From Pyrobaculum sp. (GTDB taxonomy: Archaea; Thermoproteota; Thermoprotei; Thermoproteales; Thermoproteaceae): DNA of 30,340 bases. Position 1 is the first letter of the stretch, and each line of letters starts with the position of its first letter. The position numbers and the translations under genes are program-made. The DNA lies in the NCBI GenBank assembly GCA_046293555.1, contig JBKBOT010000001.1, positions 13,746 to 44,085 of the forward strand, in the 5' to 3' direction. Below, in pieces: positions 18,822 to 29,113 of this stretch. The notes beneath the pieces are model-generated. The model did not search any database. It worked only from the letters and a program-made list of their open reading frames with translations, and had not been told where the DNA came from.

Positions 18822-19295
18822 ATGTGTGTTCTCCGCGTCTGGCCCCCTGGGGGGGAGGAGTGGGCGGCTGTGGGGGTGTTGCTATGGGGAGACAAGATGC
18901 TTTTGATTAGACGTGTGGAGAGAGATGGAGATCCGTGGTCTGGACAGGTGGCATTCCCCGGCGGGAGGTGGAGGCCTGGAGAAGACCTGCTAGATACGGC
19001 AAGAAGAGAGGTGGAGGAGGAGACGGGGCTGAGGCCACTTGGGCTGTTTGGAGTGTTGGACCCCCAGAGTCCCAGCAATGCGCCGTGGCTCAAGGTGGTG
19101 CCCTTCCTGTTTACAGAATGGGAGGGGGACCTGAGGGTCAACCCGGGGGAGGTACAGGAGGCGCGGTGGGTGTCACGCGGCGAGTTGGCGGAGTGGCAGT
19201 GGGGAGACAGGCCTGCATTTAAGGCAGGCAGCTGGATCATCTGGGGTCTTACCTACAGGATTTTAAAAAGGCTTTTTGATTGCAACGTGTTTTAA
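18822..19295 (+). CDS. Nudix hydrolase, CoA-pyrophosphatase-like
   Basis: WSGQVAFPGG, Nudix box (ARREVEEETG) and IWGLT. Confidence 0.88.
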   Translation: MCVLRVWPPGGEEWAAVGVLLWGDKMLLIRRVERDGDPWSGQVAFPGGRWRPGEDLLDTARREVEEETGLRPLGLFGVLDPQSPSNAPWLKVVPFLFTEWEGDLRVNPGEVQEARWVSRGELAEWQWGDRPAFKAGSWIIWGLTYRILKRLFDCNVF

Positions 19296-19323: not shown

Positions 19324-20364
19324 GTGGCCTGCGAGCTAGAGGCCGTGGGGCGTTTCCACGTGTTGGAAGGACCGCGGGTGAAAATTAGGGCGTCTGCCGC
19401 CCGGGCGCTAGTGGAGAGACACTACGGCGTCGTGGGGCACGCCGCCGTGGAGCTCTGTAGGTGGACTAAAGAGGCGATGGGGGGAGGCAAGTCTTGCTAC
19501 AAGGTGAAGTTTTACAACGCGCCGGCTGGGGGGTCACATAGATGTGTAGAGATGAGCCCAGCGGGTCTAATATGTAGCAACCGTTGTGTCTACTGCTGGA
19601 GACCTACAGAGGAGTTTGACGTAATTGAGCTAGAGGGGAGGCACTACATGGAGCCAGAGGAGATCATAAGGGGGGTGTTAGAAGAAAGGAGGAGGTTGCT
19701 GTCTGGCTACTGGGGCCACCCACAGGGGCGGTTGAGGATTAAAGAGGCGCTTACGCCAACCCACTGGGCCATCTCGCTCTCCGGAGAGCCCGCCATGTAC
19801 CCCAAGTTACCTCAGCTAATTAAAGCCATAAGATCTCTTCCGCACACTAAGTCCATATTTCTTGTGACAAATGGACAACATCCAGAAATGTTGAGAAGAC
19901 TTATGGAAGAAGACGCCCTGCCCACACAGCTGTATCTCTCCACAAATGCCCCCAACGAGGAGCTGTACTACAGGATAAACGTGCCGGTAGCCCATAGAGA
20001 AGAGGCGTGGAGACGCTGGCTGGAGTCTCTAGACCTGTTGGCCAAGATGCCCACTAGGACGGTCCTCAGGATAACTCTAATCCGTAGCCTAAATTACGAC
20101 GGGAGATATATCCCACAGTTTGCACAAATTGTAAAGAGGGGCAGCCCCCATTTTGTGGAGATAAAGAGCTATATGTACCTAGGCCACTCCACATATAGGC
20201 TAGAGAGAGGAGACATGTTGACACATGAGGAGGTTAGAGAGTGGGCCCTCAAGCTGTTAAAAGAGCTGCCCGGATTTAAGTACATGGACGACGACGAGCC
20301 AAGCCGTATTGTGGTGTTACAAAACGTGGAGAGATATGTGGACAGATGGATAGTGCCGCCTTGA
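19324..20364 (+). CDS. taw1: 4-demethylwyosine synthase (radical SAM, TYW1/Taw1)
   Basis: C..CYK..FY, SHRCVEMSP, CSNRCVYCWR, AISLSGEP, LVTNG and EIKSYM.LG.S. Confidence 0.93.
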   Translation: MACELEAVGRFHVLEGPRVKIRASAARALVERHYGVVGHAAVELCRWTKEAMGGGKSCYKVKFYNAPAGGSHRCVEMSPAGLICSNRCVYCWRPTEEFDVIELEGRHYMEPEEIIRGVLEERRRLLSGYWGHPQGRLRIKEALTPTHWAISLSGEPAMYPKLPQLIKAIRSLPHTKSIFLVTNGQHPEMLRRLMEEDALPTQLYLSTNAPNEELYYRINVPVAHREEAWRRWLESLDLLAKMPTRTVLRITLIRSLNYDGRYIPQFAQIVKRGSPHFVEIKSYMYLGHSTYRLERGDMLTHEEVREWALKLLKELPGFKYMDDDEPSRIVVLQNVERYVDRWIVPP

Positions 20365-20792
20365 TGACATACGACGAGATTTCGGCAGGCGTTGTGGTGT
20401 TCTACAGGGGGGGAGAGGTGGAGTACCTCCTGCTTCACTACCCGGCGGGCCATTGGGATTTCCCAAAGGGAAATATAGAGCCGGGCGAGAGCCCAGAGGG
20501 GGCTGCCTTAAGAGAGGTAAGAGAGGAGACGGGGCTTGAGGTAAAGCTGTTAGATGGATTTAAGGAGGAGATAGAATATATATACGTCAAGGGGGGTAGA
20601 AGGGTGAGGAAAAAGGTGGTTTTCTTCCTCGGGGAGGCTGGCAGCAAAGAGGTAAGGCTAAGTTGGGAACATAAGGGCTATATATGGCTCCCCTTCGAGA
20701 AGGCGTTAGCCCGTCTGACTTATAAAAACTCGAGGCAGGTGTTGACAAGAGCCAATAGGTACATCAAGGCCTTCTCTCAAGGCGTCTTGTAA
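20364..20792 (+). CDS. Nudix hydrolase, asymmetric Ap4A hydrolase-like
   Basis: [18 protein letters not shown] and LSWEH. ATG 20364 is coupled to the taw1 stop (TGATG). Confidence 0.85.
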
Positions 20793-23811: not shown

Positions 23812-24143
23812 GATATCTCCAGGCGGCGTTAATAGTAGTGGTCTTCACGCTGGCGGCCTCCATAGCGTTTCCAAGAATTGCGCCTATAGCTCTCCGCGTG
23901 GGGTTAATCGCTTTGATAATTATAGCTGCGTTTTGGATATATCACACAATTACCCACAGGCCGCCCCCGCTGGCCTCTAGAGCTCTCGAGTTAATTAAAG
24001 CCAGGGGGCCGATCTCGAAGAGGGAAGTTATACAACATCTAGACGCCGACCTTGAAGAGGTAGAGAGAGCTCTCGACTATTTGGCAAAAAGGGGGGCAGT
24101 TAGACGGTTTGAAAAAAATGGCGTTGAGTATTACGACGTCTAG
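23808..24143 (+). CDS. Membrane protein with two TM helices and a C-terminal winged-helix-like domain
   Basis: Two hydrophobic helices, then ALELIKARGPISKREVIQHL...VERALDYLAKRGAV. ATGA coupling to the SPFH gene. Confidence 0.65.
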   Translation: MRYLQAALIVVVFTLAASIAFPRIAPIALRVGLIALIIIAAFWIYHTITHRPPPLASRALELIKARGPISKREVIQHLDADLEEVERALDYLAKRGAVRRFEKNGVEYYDV

Positions 24144-24610
24144 GAGACGTTTAACGTCGCCGTGCCGTCATACCGCAGGTAGCCCGTCTTCCCAAAAGTC
24201 TTCACGATGGCAACATACCGGCCGTTATAGTACCAAATTGACACCATCTCGCTGCCAGTATAGACTACCAGCCTGGCTGCCTCAAGCCCGATGACGCCCC
24301 TAACGCTCTTAGCCACATATCTAACTCCCCCAAGCGTCACCTCTCCACCTCCATATACCACCTTGCCGTAAGGCGAAGAGGCGTTTCTATTCACAATGTC
24401 TACAGTAAATGCCGCCTGTATGTCATCGCCTACTATAGAGACTTGTCTAGTGGCGACATATAGCGTGGTGTTAGCAATCCAGCAGGCAGACATCCCATAT
24501 GCCTGCGGGCCAGGGGGAGTCCCGCCCCGCCAGCCGTGAGCATATGCCAATTGCAGTGCGGCGATCGCCAGCGTTAGTGTTACAGCCAGCGTGACTATTT
24601 TCCACCTCAT
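24140..24610 (-). CDS. Secreted hypothetical beta-rich protein, paralogue A
   Basis: Signal peptide ending LAYA; strongly similar to 25772-26251. Confidence 0.75.
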   Translation of the reverse strand: MRWKIVTLAVTLTLAIAALQLAYAHGWRGGTPPGPQAYGMSACWIANTTLYVATRQVSIVGDDIQAAFTVDIVNRNASSPYGKVVYGGGEVTLGGVRYVAKSVRGVIGLEAARLVVYTGSEMVSIWYYNGRYVAIVKTFGKTGYLRYDGTATLNVS

Positions 24611-24695: not shown

Positions 24696-25250
24696 GTGAG
24701 GGGTTGGGTGAAAGATCTGGCGTGGCTTCTGGCCATATTGATAGCCCTGGTGGCCTACTCGTCAGCTACTGGGGTGGCCTGGCCTATTGCGGTGGTGTCG
24801 TCTTACTCCATGGAGCCCACGCTTAGGTTGGGCGACTTTATTCTCCTCATGTCTGCCTCCTGTAATTCCATACAGCCCGGCGAGATTATAGTATACGTGG
24901 CGAGACACCCCCTATGGGCCGGGAGCTGGATAATACATAGGGTGTATAAAAAAGAGGGCTGTTCCATATACACATGGGGGGATAACAACAATATGCCGGA
25001 CCAGGCGGCGGGAGAGCCCCCAGTGGTGAACAACGTGGTGGGAAAAGTGGCGGTTGTGGTGCCCTACGTGGGGGTGTTTCCACTAGTCGTCAGACCACAG
25101 GGAGTGGGGCTAGAGGCCGTGGCCACATGGCTGGGGAGGATGGCTGTGTTCTTTTTGTTAACTTACGGCTTTTATCACTACTTCAAACAGCCAGATAGGA
25201 GAAAGAAGGGCCTCAAAAAATTTAATATAGGTAGAAAATCGCCAGTATGA
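24696..25250 (+). CDS. Signal peptidase I (archaeal S26B / Sec11 type)
   Basis: VSSYSMEPTL, IIHRV and WGDNN...D. Start at GTG 24696 or ATG 24678. Confidence 0.9.
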   Translation: MRGWVKDLAWLLAILIALVAYSSATGVAWPIAVVSSYSMEPTLRLGDFILLMSASCNSIQPGEIIVYVARHPLWAGSWIIHRVYKKEGCSIYTWGDNNNMPDQAAGEPPVVNNVVGKVAVVVPYVGVFPLVVRPQGVGLEAVATWLGRMAVFFLLTYGFYHYFKQPDRRKKGLKKFNIGRKSPV

Positions 25251-25666
25251 AATACAGGCTGATGGACGTCCTGGCTTGTCCCTATGACAAGACCTTTCCC
25301 CTACGGCTTGTGGTTTTAAAGAGGGGGGAACATCCAGAACGTCAATACACCTGGCCCAGGAAGCCCTTCTGCGAGGAGTACTGCTCATACCGTGACCTCA
25401 GGGTTAAAGATCACCCAAAGCCGGACAGCCTCCCCTGTGAGGAGTGCCACAAGTGGGAAATCGAGACTGGAGTTATCTACTGCCCGTCATGCGGCAGGTG
25501 GTACCCCATAATTGAGGAAATTCCGCGAATGCTGCCAGACGAGTTAAGAAACGAGAAGGAGGAGTTAGCCTTCCTGGAGTCTATAGCCGAGGATTTAAGA
25601 CGCGTCGCGCCAGACGTCGCAGAAAAGGTGGCAAAAAGCGGAAAGCCTTTTGCCTTGAAACAATAA
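25247..25666 (+). CDS. Trm112-family methyltransferase activator (Zn-binding)
   Basis: MKYRLMDVLACP, CPSCGRWYPII..IPRMLPD; coupled to the signal peptidase (ATGA). Confidence 0.85.
   Translation: MKYRLMDVLACPYDKTFPLRLVVLKRGEHPERQYTWPRKPFCEEYCSYRDLRVKDHPKPDSLPCEECHKWEIETGVIYCPSCGRWYPIIEEIPRMLPDELRNEKEELAFLESIAEDLRRVAPDVAEKVAKSGKPFALKQ
25512..25586 (+). repeat. 75-bp direct repeat, copy 1 (inside trm112)
   Basis: TTGAGGAAATTCCGCGAATG...TTCCTGGAGTCTATAG, identical to 26436-26510. Confidence 0.95.
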
Positions 25667-25771: not shown

Positions 25772-26251
25772 TTAGTCGATTGTATATGTGGCTACTCCGC
25801 CATATTTCTCAAATCCCGGCTTTCCGAAAGTCCTAATTTCTACTACATAGCTCCCATTGTAATATCGAATTTCCACCAGTTCTCTACCGGTGTATATCTC
25901 AAGTTTTGCGCCATCTCTCCCCGCCCTGCCCTCTATAGACTTAACTACATATCGAACGCCGTTGATCACCACATCTCCACTTCCATACACCACTTTGCCA
26001 TAAGGCAGGTTGGGGTCAGGCGTCAAAACGTCTACCGTAAGATCTACAGTAATTCTATCGCCGACGATACTTAAGCGAGCTGTCTTAACGTAGAGCGTGA
26101 CGTTGGCCCACGCCGGCTGCTTTTTTGACGCTGCCGCCCATGGGGGAGGCCCCCCGGCTTTCGGCACCCCAGAGGCATACGCCGCCTGTATGGTCAACAG
26201 AACTGCCGCCACTACCGCCGCCACAGCCACAACTTTTGTCAACAAAGCCAT
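25772..26251 (-). CDS. Secreted hypothetical beta-rich protein, paralogue B
   Basis: Start at ATG 26251 (MALLTKVVAVAAVVAAVLLTIQAAYA signal peptide) with TTTATA just upstream; shares LYV.T..SIVGD, PYGKVVYG.G, GVRYV.KS, YYNG.Y and TFGK.G with paralogue A. Confidence 0.75.
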   Translation of the reverse strand: MALLTKVVAVAAVVAAVLLTIQAAYASGVPKAGGPPPWAAASKKQPAWANVTLYVKTARLSIVGDRITVDLTVDVLTPDPNLPYGKVVYGSGDVVINGVRYVVKSIEGRAGRDGAKLEIYTGRELVEIRYYNGSYVVEIRTFGKPGFEKYGGVATYTID

Positions 26252-26435
26252 GATATCTATAAGTTGTATAAATATGTGTCTTACGTCGAGAGCTGCGCTA
26301 GTGGCCCCAGCCTCTAGCAGTAGACGCCCGACAATCTTCAGTGGGCTATCTGCGGGGCGCACGGCTCAAGCTTTGGAGATACGTATGGCGAGCTATTTAA
26401 CGATTACTTCAAGCTAGAGAGGCCGGGCGGCAGGC

Positions 26436-26510
26436 TTGAGGAAATTCCGCGAATGCTGCCAGACGAGTTAAGAAACGAGAAGGAGGAGTTAGCCTTCCTG
26501 GAGTCTATAG
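26436..26510 (+). repeat. 75-bp direct repeat, copy 2 (trm112 fragment), bounded by AGGCTTGA direct repeats
   Basis: Identical to 25512-25586; AGGCTTGA at 26432-26439 and 26509-26516. Confidence 0.95.
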
Positions 26511-27425
26511 GCTTGAAGTATGCAGAGCTGGCGAAGTTATAGCTTCATATAGCTTTTTGAAGATGGGCGATCTTGGCGGTAGTTCTGACTTTTGTACCAC
26601 CCAGGCGTTAACAAGGGCCCTATATTCAAAGCTGGCCAGCCGCTCGGAGAAGCCGTCCGAGAGGGGGAACCCCGTCTCTCTTAGGAAGTGATGTAGCTCT
26701 TCGAGCTCGCCGTCTTTGGGTTTGGCTTTGCCGAATTTTACGTCTCTCTTGGTGACGTGTCTCTCTCCGCCGCCTGGCAGGAGGACTTTGCCGTATGCCG
26801 CCTTGAGGCGCCAGGTGGCCGTGTCGGTGCTGTCTACCCCCACTGCCTTAAGTATCGGCGTGACGGCGGGGCTGCCGAGGCCGAGGACATGTAGTCTGCC
26901 TCCATATAGCTGTCTAACTTCTGCAATGAGGGAGAGGGCGTAGTGGCGGGAGTTCTTTGGGGCGCCTCTTGTGGTTAGTACATATGGCACAGCCCCCCCA
27001 ATTGCCAACAACGGTGCGTCTAGATACCTCTCTAGGTACTTAAAGAAGTGGGTGGCTTCTTTATATACATGTAGGATGGGCACCACCTCTAGCCTTTTCG
27101 ACATCTTCAGCCAGTTTCTATACGTCTTTTCGAACTTCTTTTTGGCTACCTCCGGCGGGTCTTGGGGGGTGGGCGGCACGTCGAGGGAGAAGTAGAGCTG
27201 GGCGTCTACCCCCTCATATATCTTAATTATGTCGTGAACGTCGATGGAGATACCCTTCTTTAGGATCTGGTAGCCGCCTGAATCCAGCCAGAGCTCCCCC
27301 TCGTATTGCAACACGGCTCTGGGGTCTCTCTTTACCTCCAGGGCGTTTATGAGTAGGGCTTGCACCTTGAAGTACAGCCAGGGTTTTGGCGTGGCGTTTA
27401 GCGGTGTGCCTAGTGTTATTAACAC
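26505..27425 (-). CDS. tRNA-guanine transglycosylase-like (TGT/DpdA superfamily) protein lacking the Zn site
   Basis: LDSGGYQ, SLDVPP, VPILH, AIGG, HVLGLG and VDSTDTATW; contains no Cys. Confidence 0.8.
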   Translation of the reverse strand: MLITLGTPLNATPKPWLYFKVQALLINALEVKRDPRAVLQYEGELWLDSGGYQILKKGISIDVHDIIKIYEGVDAQLYFSLDVPPTPQDPPEVAKKKFEKTYRNWLKMSKRLEVVPILHVYKEATHFFKYLERYLDAPLLAIGGAVPYVLTTRGAPKNSRHYALSLIAEVRQLYGGRLHVLGLGSPAVTPILKAVGVDSTDTATWRLKAAYGKVLLPGGGERHVTKRDVKFGKAKPKDGELEELHHFLRETGFPLSDGFSERLASFEYRALVNAWVVQKSELPPRSPIFKKLYEAITSPALHTSSL

Positions 27426-27584: not shown

Positions 27585-28058
27585 ATGTATCTTGTCATCA
27601 TAAAAAGCCAGAAGGAGATATACAAAAGGCTGGGGCGGCGGATAGAGGCTTTAGAGCTACTGCCGGGGGTATACCTCACTTGGTCTCCAAGAGAGAAGAT
27701 AGAGAAGGCTGTGGAGACCACAAAGAGAGAGCTGACTAGAGAATGGGAGGAAAAGGGGGAGGGGCCCTTTTTCGACACCGCCATAATAGAGCTGACAGAA
27801 GGCCAGACAAAATCTCTAAAAACTCTCTCGAGGGCAGTAATTGAAAGCCTCGCAGAGGCTATGCTTGTAGAGATGGAGAGACTCCACACAAGGCTTAGGT
27901 CTAGAGACAAGAAGGCAGTTGGGTGGTATAGAGACTTGGCTAGACGCTACAAGAAGCTTATAGACACCTCTTTTGTTCTCGACATATACCCCTCGATATT
28001 AGACAAGCTTAAAGAGAAGTGGATGGAGATCTCTCTAGAGGCAGGCAGGTTGAGATAA
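27585..28058 (+). CDS. Hypothetical protein (157 aa)
   Basis: ATG with TTTAAATA about 25 nt upstream; TAATG coupling to the amidohydrolase. Confidence 0.7.
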   Translation: MYLVIIKSQKEIYKRLGRRIEALELLPGVYLTWSPREKIEKAVETTKRELTREWEEKGEGPFFDTAIIELTEGQTKSLKTLSRAVIESLAEAMLVEMERLHTRLRSRDKKAVGWYRDLARRYKKLIDTSFVLDIYPSILDKLKEKWMEISLEAGRLR

Positions 28059-29113
28059 TGGCTGCCATAAAGGCGCGGTACGTCTTAGCCGGCGAGCTGG
28101 AGGCAATAGAAAACGGTGTTGTGGAGATAGACGACGCTGGGGTTGTGGCCGGCGTGGGGAAATATACAGGCGGCGTCGTGGCGGATTTAGGCAACGTTAT
28201 CTTAATGCCGCAGCTGGCAAACAGCCACGTACATGTGCTAGACGCCGCCATTTTGGACAGAGACGACATGTATATCGACGACCTTGTGGGGTGGCCATAT
28301 GGCGTGAAGTATCTAGCCGCCAAAAGGCTTGTGGAGAGGGGGAGACATATGCCGCTCTTGAGAAAGGTGGCAGAGAGGATGCGGAAATACGGCACTGGAT
28401 GCGCCTTAGTGTATGTAGAATACGGCGCGAGAGATGTGGAGGCGGTCTTTAGGCAACACGACATAGAGGTTGTGACGTTTCAAGAGGCACATGGCGATTT
28501 TCCCACACATCCCTACGTACAAGTGGCCTCGCCGTTGGACCACCCCGTGGAGTATCTAAAAGAGCTCAGGAGGCGCTATGTGAAGATCTCTACGCACGTC
28601 TCCGAGACGGAAGACTGCCACGAGGGGGGAGACTTAGAGCTAGCCCTCAAGGCCCTAGACGCAGACGTGTTGGTACATTTGGTACACATAACGCCAGAAG
28701 AGGCCTCCGCCATACCTGAGGAAAAGGCAGTGGTGGTGAACCCCCGGGCGAATGCGTATTTTGTAGGCAGGGTGGCGCCAGTGCCGCTTCTACTTAGCCA
28801 TAAGCCGTTATTAGGTACAGACAACGTCTTTATGAACGAGCCAGATCTGTGGGCAGAGATGAAGTTTCTCCACGCCTACTCAGCCGCCGTTGGGTGGAAG
28901 CTCGACGAGAGGGACATCTTGGCGATGGCCACAGTGTGGAATTGGGAAAAGGTGGGATGTTTACCCCCAATAGACGTCGGCTTGCCCCTACGGGCCATGG
29001 CCCTCTCTGCGCCCTATGTTGGCGACAAGATATATAAATATCTAGTGAAGAGGGCTACAGCTAACGACATTCACGCCTTTATTGAGAGAGGCCAGGTGGT
29101 AAAAATTTATTAG
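28058..29113 (+). CDS. Metal-dependent amidohydrolase (nucleoside/nucleobase deaminase-like)
   Basis: NSHVH (HxH), HVSET, HLVH and LGTD motifs. Start at ATG 28058. Confidence 0.85.
   Translation: MAAIKARYVLAGELEAIENGVVEIDDAGVVAGVGKYTGGVVADLGNVILMPQLANSHVHVLDAAILDRDDMYIDDLVGWPYGVKYLAAKRLVERGRHMPLLRKVAERMRKYGTGCALVYVEYGARDVEAVFRQHDIEVVTFQEAHGDFPTHPYVQVASPLDHPVEYLKELRRRYVKISTHVSETEDCHEGGDLELALKALDADVLVHLVHITPEEASAIPEEKAVVVNPRANAYFVGRVAPVPLLLSHKPLLGTDNVFMNEPDLWAEMKFLHAYSAAVGWKLDERDILAMATVWNWEKVGCLPPIDVGLPLRAMALSAPYVGDKIYKYLVKRATANDIHAFIERGQVVKIY

Follow-up and report, generated by a model that had tools for sequence, protein, structure and literature searches.

What does a small, solitary enzyme of the tRNA-guanine transglycosylase (TGT) type do in an archaeon, and on which molecule does it act? 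The question is raised by a gene at positions 26505-27425 of the window, by which we mean the whole stretch of DNA analysed here (30,340 nucleotides of Pyrobaculum sp., GenBank assembly GCA_046293555.1, contig JBKBOT010000001.1, positions 13,746 to 44,085). An original prediction, made from the letters of the window, had described it as a zinc-less, stand-alone TGT/DpdA-like transglycosylase that might exchange bases in DNA, rRNA or a different tRNA site. DNA that contains 7-deazaguanines has been described for phages, for a few archaeal viruses and for the Dpd islands of bacteria. Our analyses suggest, with about even confidence, that the TGT-like protein is a DNA-guanine transglycosylase of the DpdA-like branch. 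The gene and the residues on which this reading turns are given below, by alignment to the archaeosine TGT (arcTGT) of P. horikoshii (1iq8) and to bacterial DpdA (bDpdA; 7ui4).

26505..27425, minus strand: gene of the predicted zinc-free DpdA-like, TGT-fold transglycosylase; 306 residues, GTG start, open reading frame (ORF) without internal stop.
27267..27284, minus strand: DSGGYQ, residues 48-53; D48 corresponds to arcTGT D95 and bDpdA Asp95.
27171..27185, minus strand: LDVPP, residues 81-85; D82, invariant in the 23-sequence and the 20-sequence family alignments, corresponds to arcTGT D130 and bDpdA Asp130.
27069..27071, minus strand: H119, invariant, at the position of bDpdA His181 and of arcTGT Gln169.
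26823..26834, minus strand: DSTD, residues 198-201; D201, invariant in the same two family alignments, at the nucleophile position of arcTGT D249 and bDpdA Asp256.
26754..26813, minus strand: WRLKAAYGK...PGGGERHV, a clade-specific motif common to a zinc-bearing sister group and to the proteins of the STSV viruses.
26601..26711, minus strand: region replacing the zinc knuckle, from …GFPL… to RALVNAW (residues 269-275 = 26601-26621), delimited by alignments and Cys counts.

The ORF is far beyond what chance would give, because it has 100 close homologues, 29 invariant columns in an alignment of 23 family sequences and low pairwise ratios of nonsynonymous to synonymous substitution (dN/dS 0.11-0.19, and about 0.13-0.15 between the copies of this genome, rough values as dS is near saturation). 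Its start is supported by the same alignment, in which the N-terminus MLITLGTPLN is in register with the orthologues. The three motifs on which the original prediction relied are all in place, with D48, D82 and D201 intact and pairing with D95, D130 and D249 of P. horikoshii arcTGT; these three residues and H119 are among the invariant columns, as is the whole of D48 S49 G50 G51, and Y52 occupies the position of the base-stacking Phe in the alignments to 1iq8 and 7ui4. In bDpdA, Asp95 is described as the general acid/base and Asp130 as binding the edge of the base (PMC10164549). As judged from these sequences, the family is under purifying selection and its predicted catalytic machinery is intact. 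The clade-specific motif has W205, K208-K213, P217, G220 and E221 invariant in the 23 sequences, and patterns derived from it recovered the STSV1/2 loci. The absence of zinc ligands also holds: the protein has 0 Cys, and where zinc-bearing relatives have CxCxxC … RA(L/I)HNAW the family has GFPL … RALVNAW, with Val in the place of the zinc-ligand His (20-sequence alignment; alignment to 1iq8). The predicted isoelectric point (pI) is basic, 9.45, which would fit any nucleic acid as substrate.

To which fold do these residues belong? An AlphaFold model built from 23 family members (predicted local distance difference test score, pLDDT, 92.7; predicted template modelling score, pTM, 0.90) is a single TIM barrel with a short helical tail, in agreement with the earlier remark that PUA and other C-terminal domains are missing. 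The top five matches of the model in structural comparison are all of the TGT superfamily (Z 16.2-26.5, against 14.0 for the best unrelated TIM barrel): arcTGT 1iq8 (Z 26.5, root mean square deviation 2.7, 281 residues aligned), bacterial TGT (Z 21.9), the DNA preQ0 insertase DpdA 7ui4 (Z 21.8, 271 residues aligned), QTRT2 (Z 20.1) and Cap10 (9ntn, Z 16.2). By sequence, the sole real match in the PDB is P. horikoshii arcTGT (E 5.3e-11), to whose catalytic core the protein is 28% identical, the alignment stopping at chain residue 338-383 of 582; the family profile ranks arcTGT (9.4e-17) before DpdA (5.7e-3) and Cap10 (0.5, insignificant). The fold and the catalytic residues are established by these comparisons, and the modelled barrel together with the three active-site Asp places the protein in the TGT superfamily.

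The presence of Cap10 in this list brings in an explanation outside polynucleotides, in which the enzyme would conjugate a 7-deazaguanine to a protein, as Cap10 of type IV CBASS, or would exchange or salvage free nucleosides or nucleotides. The TGT fold can support such chemistry, as the title of the matching structure, 'Cap10-CdnD complex containing NDG modification', shows. Cap10 is nonetheless the weakest of the five superfamily matches by fold and insignificant by sequence. The neighbouring genes that were scanned, without a search aimed at this point, include neither a CD-NTase nor a QueC-like Cap9, and a nucleic acid would agree with the basic pI and with the partners HerA and ArcS-C1 described below; we regard a target other than a polynucleotide as improbable.

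Since arcTGT is the nearest solved relative, is the gene half of a split arcTGT? The genome contains a complete arcTGT of 492 residues on another contig (C7:23885-25363), which matches the Pfam TGT family PF01702 with 235 bits over the whole model; the separate canonical tgtA that the original prediction had proposed to look for is thus present, and a split arcTGT, which would have spoken against that prediction, is ruled out. The assembly measures 1.75 Mb in 145 contigs and is 96% complete, with an estimated contamination of 0.14%. The preQ0 genes QueC and QueD-like are present in this genome; a search for ArcS returned only a weak DUF5591-like stretch inside arcTGT. This arcTGT has a weak C1-like stretch and no PUA match at E<=1e-3. 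The sequence at the zinc-motif place of this arcTGT reads ...LPCSTKLCQIP..., and four Thermoproteales arcTGTs (genomes G000, G036, G054, G004) lack CxCxxC in their first 350-360 residues and have 1-2 Cys there; that of a fifth genome (G016) retains the motif.

These unusual arcTGTs, the own one without PUA match and the four without CxCxxC, together with the match of the model to QTRT2, could be taken as signs that the TGT-like protein is, like eukaryotic QTRT2, a non-catalytic partner subunit that assists a PUA-less arcTGT or QueF-L. Three catalytic Asp and a base-reading His that are all invariant across the family are not what one would look for in a degenerate subunit, and we hold this explanation to be very improbable indeed.

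If the protein is a catalytic enzyme, is it closer to the tRNA enzymes or to DpdA? Models of known families give a mixed picture. The TGT model PF01702 reaches only 19.7 bits, under its gathering cut-off of 26.3 (E 4.9e-4), and covers residues 43-219; STSV2_15, SIRV2 ORF310 and the DpdA of phage WildeMaa have no Pfam match at 1e-3 at all. The arcTGT equivalog TIGR00432 (TgtA) is far from reached (45.1 bits vs a cut-off of 350), and the zinc site CxCxxC…H and the C1, C2 and PUA domains of arcTGT are absent, as the protein stops after the barrel and its helical tail. The zinc site CXCX2CX22H and the insertions of bacterial DpdA are absent too (306 residues vs 436 in the 7ui4 chain), and the DpdA4 model of haloarchaeal viruses (DUF6610, PF20314) has no match at E<=1. 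The zinc-bearing sister group does match the PADLOC DpdA model PDLC02807, at 1.2e-14 and 2.5e-12. Neither dpdB (ParB-like ATPase) nor dpdC was found among the 17 window genes in a Pfam scan, the rest of the genome not being searched.

A further clue is the residue at position 119. The profile alignments set H119 against the His in the 7ui4 segment 'vaHGw' and against Gln169 in the 1iq8 segment 'atiQgs', so that the His181 equivalent of bacterial DpdA is found in the TGT-like family, and the arcTGT of the same genome keeps Gln there (APIQGA, 20-sequence alignment). This conserved His has been named as a hallmark of DpdA (PMC6884629, PMC10164549). The nearest named relatives point the same way and bear out the label DpdA-like. 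A tblastn search of 50,697 phage and virus records matched 59 of them, with Sulfolobus viruses STSV2, STSV1 and STSV4 at the head (36% identity, residues 39-306, E 5e-41 to 5e-40, STSV2_15 being the protein at 5e-41), followed by ORF310-type proteins of rudiviruses (25-29%, E 4e-7 to 3e-20), by the '7-deazaguanosine inserting enzyme DpdA' of Seuratvirus coliphages (25%, residues 43-276, E 6e-5 to 1e-4), whose genes lie within phage preQ0 clusters, by Pantoea phage Vid5 (E 2e-5) and, in part of their length, by Cellulophaga phages (2e-4). Among predicted viral structures (BFVD) the best match is likewise a rudivirus protein (E 6e-19, TM 0.71/0.74). The STSV and rudivirus proteins, STSV2_15 included, were filed as DpdA by Hutinet et al., and dCDG was measured in STSV-2 DNA at 0.04% of G (PMC10516641). 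STSV2_15 has 291 residues and is followed by STSV2_16, which matches DUF5591, the catalytic C1 domain of ArcS.

The loss of zinc, which had been presented as a special feature, is real and is not special. Cys counts and the 20-sequence alignment separate two layouts: a zinc-bearing one of 340-400 residues with CxCxxC and RA(L/I)HNAW, which passes the Pfam TGT model, and a zinc-free one of about 290-400 residues without these motifs. The latter comprises the window family, its relatives from other crenarchaeal families, and the STSV, rudivirus, coliphage and Pantoea-phage DpdA; the proteins of Seuratvirus WildeMaa and of Vid5, both of 306 residues, lack CxCxxC and the zinc-ligand His, as do STSV2_15 and the rudivirus proteins. 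The DpdA of bacterial Dpd islands retains its zinc site (PMC10164549). Absence of zinc is thus the norm for phage-type DpdA.

How are the two layouts related? Quick maximum-likelihood trees (IQ-TREE, LG+C20, with supports from the Shimodaira-Hasegawa-like approximate likelihood ratio test, SH-aLRT, only) were rooted on the catalytic domains of five Thermoproteales arcTGTs; their rows exclude bacterial DpdA, bacterial TGT and euryarchaeal arcTGT, and the group labels T, T2 and Z were assigned by similarity, not taxonomy. In a tree of 50 rows, the 30 zinc-free ones fall together in a single clade (SH-aLRT 100) inside a grade of zinc-bearing rows. A second tree of 60 rows, from which ten rows were dropped (the three longest zinc-free branches and seven zinc-bearing ones) and to which 20 chromosomal proteins of other crenarchaeal families were added, again gives a zinc-free clade (46 rows, SH-aLRT 99), in which the Thermoproteales rows make up a clade (99); f51 and f31 come out as separate family groups, and f42 comes close to doing so. 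In both trees the zinc-free clade lies beside a zinc-bearing group and stands apart from arcTGT. Its kinship is established here, and the STSV2 protein lies at a path length of 0.42 from its nearest neighbour. We read this as a cellular family of long standing in hyperthermophilic Thermoproteota, from which the 'DpdA' genes of crenarchaeal viruses were captured.

How widely is the gene distributed? With the window protein as query it was found in 61 of the 62 genomes of the order Thermoproteales and in all 37 of high quality, the only genome without a match being 54% complete; most have one copy, and nearly all give a weaker match to arcTGT besides. A stand-alone zinc-less paralogue was correctly recognized in the window, and it is not peculiar to one genome. 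The family profile matches 63 of the 120 genomes in the class, 2 of the 58 outside the order among them, and 62 of 401 in an even sample of the phylum (E<=1e-25). In that sample the two big families of the order are complete (22/22 and 15/15), f31 has 5/5 and f32 10/16, further matches fall in f4, f37, f42 and f51, and f16 has none (0/61). A profile search of 1.84 billion representatives returned 2447 relatives at E<=1e-3 and 147 at E<=1e-30. The public names of homologues are 'tRNA-ribosyltransferase' or 'hypothetical protein', and the database names 'tRNA-ribosyltransferase' and 'queuine tRNA-ribosyltransferase' lack support. The tree of the family broadly follows taxonomy, and the gene is near-universal and largely vertically inherited in hyperthermophilic Thermoproteota.

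Such a housekeeping-like pattern, usually one copy in 61 of 62 genomes, invites the question whether the substrate is RNA after all. The protein would then be a second RNA-guanine transglycosylase, placing preQ0 at a tRNA site other than G15, in rRNA or in another stable RNA, to be converted to archaeosine by QueF-L. The arcTGT catalytic domain is the nearest match in fold and profile, one arcTGT, that of Thermoplasma, acts at two tRNA sites (PMC4770233), and the Trm112-like, Taw1 and methyltransferase neighbours in the window are tRNA-modification genes. Against it, the protein has no RNA-binding C-terminal domains and carries the DpdA-type His where tRNA enzymes have Gln; its Trm112/Taw1 neighbourhood is kept only within the genus, and copies of the gene sit on viruses and in accessory DNA. 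A tRNA-mapping paper contained nothing on a second site, and the modification terms looked for were absent from a Pyrobaculum ribosome preprint. The genes that recur beside it, to which we now turn, also count in the weighing.

The first partner is QueF-L, described as the crenarchaeal enzyme that converts preQ0-tRNA to archaeosine-tRNA (PMC5485725). The original prediction had noted that no preQ0-related gene lies in the window, which is literally correct; a 7-deazaguanine gene is linked all the same, QueF-L lying only about 350 bp past the window end.

C1:44436-44807 of the own genome (window coordinates 30691-31062): QueF-L, 3.3 kb from the TGT-like gene.

In 13 Pyrobaculum genomes QueF-L lies 3-33 kb from the TGT-like gene on the same contig. 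The sister genus Thermoproteus has it within 100 bp of the TGT-like gene in 8 of its 9 genomes; it was not found in the ninth (76% complete). This adjacency in Thermoproteus favours an RNA target, because QueF-L has been shown to act in tRNA archaeosine synthesis (PMC5485725). There is one copy per genome. QueF-L was not found in five genera with a single-protein query, and family f3 has a distant, unlinked QueF-L-like gene; small genes downstream in f3 (109-128 residues) were considered as divergent QueF-L and set aside, having no Pfam support at E<=1.

The second partner is a HerA-type ATPase of about 530 residues (HAS barrel and DUF87), present in 62/62 genomes of the order and directly adjoining the TGT-like gene in 21 of them, in 4 of the 9 genera. 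The two NurA genes of the own genome pair with other HerA paralogues, and the idea that this partner is the canonical HerA-NurA repair pair was rejected, its orthologue on contig C15 having no adjacent NurA. There (C15:8828-15324) the stand-alone HerA gene shares a run of genes with one for diphthamide synthesis, one for a type IA topoisomerase (Toprim and Topoisom_bac, 608 residues) and one for an XPD-type helicase. Four genomes of genus g9 have the HerA gene beside the TGT-like gene in pieces or with in-frame stops, the TGT-like gene itself being open; this may be assembly error or real decay.

G022:C3:117267-118874, G023:C4:62969-64571, G027:C1:242072-243672 and G028:C7:128808-130402: broken HerA genes of the g9 genomes.

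In family f32 the putative finishing enzyme is of another kind. Its loci were scanned with hidden Markov models (HMMs) built from our own alignments, the labels ArcSC1, QueFL and HerAz being self-assigned and ArcS-C1 being confirmed with Pfam PF17884 in five genomes. A short ArcS-C1 gene occurs in all eight loci (adjacent in 6, within four genes in 2); HerA is found in 2 of the 8 as well, with a third example in family f37. In five f32 genomes the ArcS-C1 gene is the sole strong DUF5591 match, and a QueC-family frame of about 470 residues is also present, presumably the Gat-QueC that serves tRNA archaeosine in Sulfolobales. That a separate short ArcS-C1 travels with the f32 gene despite this protein argues against an RNA target. 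The 'QueFL' profile matches of f31 (188-189 residues, E ~1e-6) are perhaps FolE-type T-fold proteins and are not counted as evidence. A pair of TGT-like and DUF5591 genes also occurs in one of the two matching class genomes outside the order.

The zinc-bearing sister group extends the same association. Its 25 loci (L082-L106) come from Archaeoglobales, Methanobacteriaceae, Bathyarchaeia, Methanodesulfokora, Nitrosopumilus, Thermoplasmata and Heimdallarchaeia among archaea and from bacteria of four phyla. Eight of the 25 have an operon of HerA, a protein of about 1400 residues, DUF5591 (ArcS C1) and TGT, and four have TGT, NurA and HerA; integrase, PLD-nuclease and STAND-like ATPase genes stand near some loci. 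The HerA of Vulcanisaeta is 24% identical to that of the sister group over 539 residues (E 2e-25). In at least four contexts at the level of lineages, the transglycosylase is thus accompanied by a DNA translocase and by an enzyme that completes archaeosine-type bases, separately from the tRNA pathway; these gene linkages are established here. Recurrent partners such as HerA-type translocase, NurA, integrase and PLD genes are not what an RNA-modifying enzyme would lead one to expect, and taking both sides together we consider a second RNA-guanine transglycosylase to be unlikely, though it deserves serious weight. The four-gene operon is found in very diverse archaea and in one Bacteroidota metagenome-assembled genome (MAG) (e.g., L090:128-7068, L098:70-9618); its 1400-residue protein (1410aa) has no Pfam domain, and the whole looks like an undescribed deazaguanine-based DNA-marking or defence island.

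DNA, by comparison, is judged the likeliest substrate because RNA-binding domains are missing and the DpdA-type His is present, because of the company of HerA, NurA and integrase and the copies on viruses and accessory elements, because a separate amidinotransferase accompanies the gene where tRNA appears to be served otherwise, and because there is one experimental anchor, the deazaguanine in STSV-2 DNA. From these features we infer the catalytic activity, the DNA substrate, the inserted base and the roles of QueF-L and HerA. A double-displacement mechanism is established for TGT and proposed for DpdA (PMC10164549), and for the TGT-like protein it is inferred from conserved residues only. Asp201 would attack C1' of the target guanosine to give a covalent Asp201-ribose intermediate with removal of guanine, Asp48 would be the acid/base protonating the leaving guanine, and Asp82 with His119 would read the base; preQ0, already made by the cell for tRNA archaeosine, would be inserted in place of guanine. 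The most probable target is double-stranded DNA, that of the cell itself as well as that of mobile elements residing in it. A linked amidinotransferase may convert the inserted preQ0 to an archaeosine-type base, this being QueF-L in Pyrobaculum and Thermoproteus and the ArcS-C1 domain protein in other lineages, while the HerA-type translocase could provide ATP-driven access to DNA, the role of DpdB in bacteria. It is tempting to go one step further and to hypothesize that the chromosomes of Thermoproteota hyperthermophiles, in Thermoproteales and several further families, carry an archaeosine-type 7-deazaguanine, installed after replication by the TGT-like enzyme, an amidinotransferase (QueF-L or ArcS-C1) and a HerA motor, and that viruses (STSV, rudiviruses) and mobile elements, among them those with the two extra copies described below, captured the gene for the same mark; this wider proposal is put forward tentatively and with distinctly less confidence than the assignment of the enzyme itself.

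Several observations weigh against a DNA-guanine transglycosylase. By raw profile score and by fold, arcTGT is nearer than DpdA (9.4e-17 vs 5.7e-3; Z 26.5 vs 21.8), and the bacterial DpdA models PF23859 and PADLOC PDLC02807 have no match at E<=1. A single-copy, vertically inherited, near-universal gene is typical of a housekeeping RNA-modification enzyme. The linkage to QueF-L does not discriminate between targets, because the sole QueF-L is already needed for tRNA; HerA is unlinked in Pyrobaculum and Thermoproteus, that of the own genome lying on C15; and the linkage counts stand for few evolutionary events, because the genomes are tied to one another by descent. The analysis identified no restriction partner. 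The experimental anchor is itself ambiguous, since the dCDG of STSV-2 is not the base that the authors had predicted and the activity of STSV2_15 is itself putative (PMC10516641). In the trees five archaeal-virus proteins fall among chromosomal f32 proteins (13 rows, SH-aLRT 100); viral genes that look like captured host genes are therefore no independent evidence for a DNA substrate. The bacteriophage rows, for their part, have branches of 2.0-3.6 changes per column, and because these are very long the placement of bacteriophage DpdA within the zinc-free clade is unsure.

Is the window gene the only one of its kind in its genome? The assembly holds three TGT-like copies, the one in the window and one each on contigs C21 (74% identity) and C26 (70%), and all three retain the family-invariant residues. 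The window copy is the syntenic, ancestral one, because its neighbourhood recurs in nine other Pyrobaculum loci compared; it is 81% identical to its orthologue in another Pyrobaculum MAG, closer than to either extra copy. As most genomes are single-copy and that orthologue is closer, the extra copies are old duplicates or transfers from related lineages. Unique to this assembly, they lie in accessory, mobile-looking DNA, beside genes for which the 17 other genomes of the genus gave no match, and may belong to a mis-binned mobile element. Contamination from other Pyrobaculum species is not favoured as the source of three copies: the estimated contamination is 0.14%, few ORFs are duplicated across contigs (7 of 39 on C21 and 5 of 29 on C26 have a BLAST match on another contig at E<=1e-10), and the genes beside the copies are also absent from those 17 genomes. 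The C26 copy adjoins a PCNA/Hus1-like gene and two Hsp20 genes. Contig C21 (24.5 kb), which resembles a mobile element or provirus, is rich in small orphan ORFs and carries a row of four paralogous genes of 173-188 residues, two ATPases (AAA, nSTAND3) and a helix-turn-helix protein with a domain like ORF131 of Pyrobaculum spherical virus (PSV), together with an extra PCNA (63% to the copy on C16), TFB (46%) and dCTP deaminase (93% to C66); no integrase was seen among 33 ORFs scanned. Divergent second copies (34-41% identity) occur in two other genomes, one (L112:2533-8643, G003:C4) between a DUF87/AAA_10 ATPase (595 residues) and an AAA/nSTAND3 ATPase (605 residues), the other (L111, G045:C10) adjoining an FtsK-like ATPase; the surroundings of both copies resemble defence islands or mobile elements.

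Which genes accompany the copy in the window? In the nine other Pyrobaculum loci the order runs Trm112-like, a secreted protein of 196 residues, the TGT-like gene, a divergent gene of 157 residues, an amidohydrolase-like gene, an ABC transporter and QueF-L. Three of these neighbours have the following places in the window.

25247-25666: Trm112-like gene, from the Pfam scan of the window.
27585..28058, plus strand: gene of 157 residues, divergent from the TGT-like gene; adjacent to it here as in 7 of the 9 other Pyrobaculum loci.
28019..29113, plus strand: amidohydrolase-like gene of 364 residues (Amidohydro_1, E 1e-5); also present in 8 of the 9 other loci.

The 157-residue and amidohydrolase-like genes are neighbours conserved within the genus. 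The former has no Pfam family; its leads in the Atlas are folds of the Cas2-like, ChrB_N and PaaX_M kinds (scores 0.77-0.85, under the bar of 0.9), and several of the clusters nearest to it there are viral. The latter has no sequence match in the PDB. Two paralogous, predicted secreted or membrane-anchored proteins (24140-24610, minus strand, 156 residues; 25772-26362, minus strand, 196 residues) have a common C-terminal half (…GKVVYG.G.V…GVRYV.KS…YYNG.YV…) and stand on either side of the signal-peptidase and Trm112-like genes; neither belongs to a Pfam family, and in the synteny comparison the two form their own cluster. Further away, a Taw1-like wyosine radical-SAM gene (19324-20364, plus strand) lies between two NUDIX hydrolase genes (18822-19295, 20346-20792).

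Why should the nature of the substrate matter? A DpdA-like transglycosylase that is, as its sequences indicate, cellular and vertically inherited differs from what has been described. In the literature searched, with subscription papers and the supplements of Hutinet 2019/2023 outside scope, there was no report of the TGT-like cellular family or of a crenarchaeal chromosomal deazaguanine, no analysis of the DNA of any Thermoproteales organism for deazaguanine, and no cellular, vertically inherited archaeal DNA-deazaguanine system; a haloarchaeal host DpdA is mentioned in passing in one paper (PMC6884629). New here are the three copies, QueF-L just past the window, the linkage to HerA across the order, the His119 signature and the nesting of viral genes in genes of the host family. 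If DNA is the target, a whole group of hyperthermophiles would have a hypermodified, positively charged base in its genomes, with a bearing on the stability of DNA at high temperature, on the marking of self and non-self and on mimicry between virus and host, and the origin of the DpdA genes of Sulfolobus viruses would be explained. If RNA is the target, there would be a second, unmapped site of the archaeosine type.

Among known systems, one comparison is with a HerA/FtsK-centred, BREX-related system containing a TGT, proposed on computational grounds as a DNA-marking defence (NAR 2026; PMC12839542). It offers a computational precedent for the pairing of a TGT with a HerA/FtsK translocase, and it has seven components (PglZ, DUF6079, STAND NTPase, DUF4007, GNAT and others); the surroundings of the window gene showed none of them. 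ArcTGT (TgtA, 1iq8) is the best match of solved structure, with the same three Asp and probably preQ0 as common substrate, and differs by its zinc site, its C1, C2 and PUA domains and Gln169 where the window protein has His. The DpdA of Salmonella Montevideo (7ui4) has in common the fold, the Asp triad, the His181 equivalent and, as proposed, the double-displacement chemistry, whereas bacterial DpdA has 400+ residues, four insertions and the zinc site CXCX2CX22H (PMC10164549) and needs the ParB-like ATPase DpdB. The bacteriophage DpdA1 type (phage 9g, CAjan and other Seuratvirus, Vid5) has a common layout of ~306 residues, no zinc, the Asp triad and the His, and a C-terminus …GF(P/T)… / …RA..N.W as in the window family; phage DpdA inserts preQ0 into DNA (PMC6884629). 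It is set apart by an identity of ~25%, very long branches, its place within preQ0 clusters and AAAFG instead of KAAYGK. Closest of all is the DpdA of crenarchaeal viruses, that is STSV2_15 and STSV1 ORF18 of Bicaudaviridae and the rudivirus type of SIRV2 ORF310, which like the window protein is a single TIM barrel (287-310 residues), zinc-free, with three Asp and the His kept and in the same zinc-free clade. The STSV proteins have the motif W-R-x-K-A-x-x-G … P-G-x-G-E-R in common with the window family, and the ArcS-C1 (DUF5591) gene that follows STSV2_15 parallels the QueF-L and ArcS-C1 partners of the cellular genes. The window gene, in contrast to these, is chromosomal, near-universal in its order and largely vertical; the viral genes nest in f32 chromosomal genes and not in those of Thermoproteales, and the partner in the window's genome is QueF-L rather than ArcS-C1.

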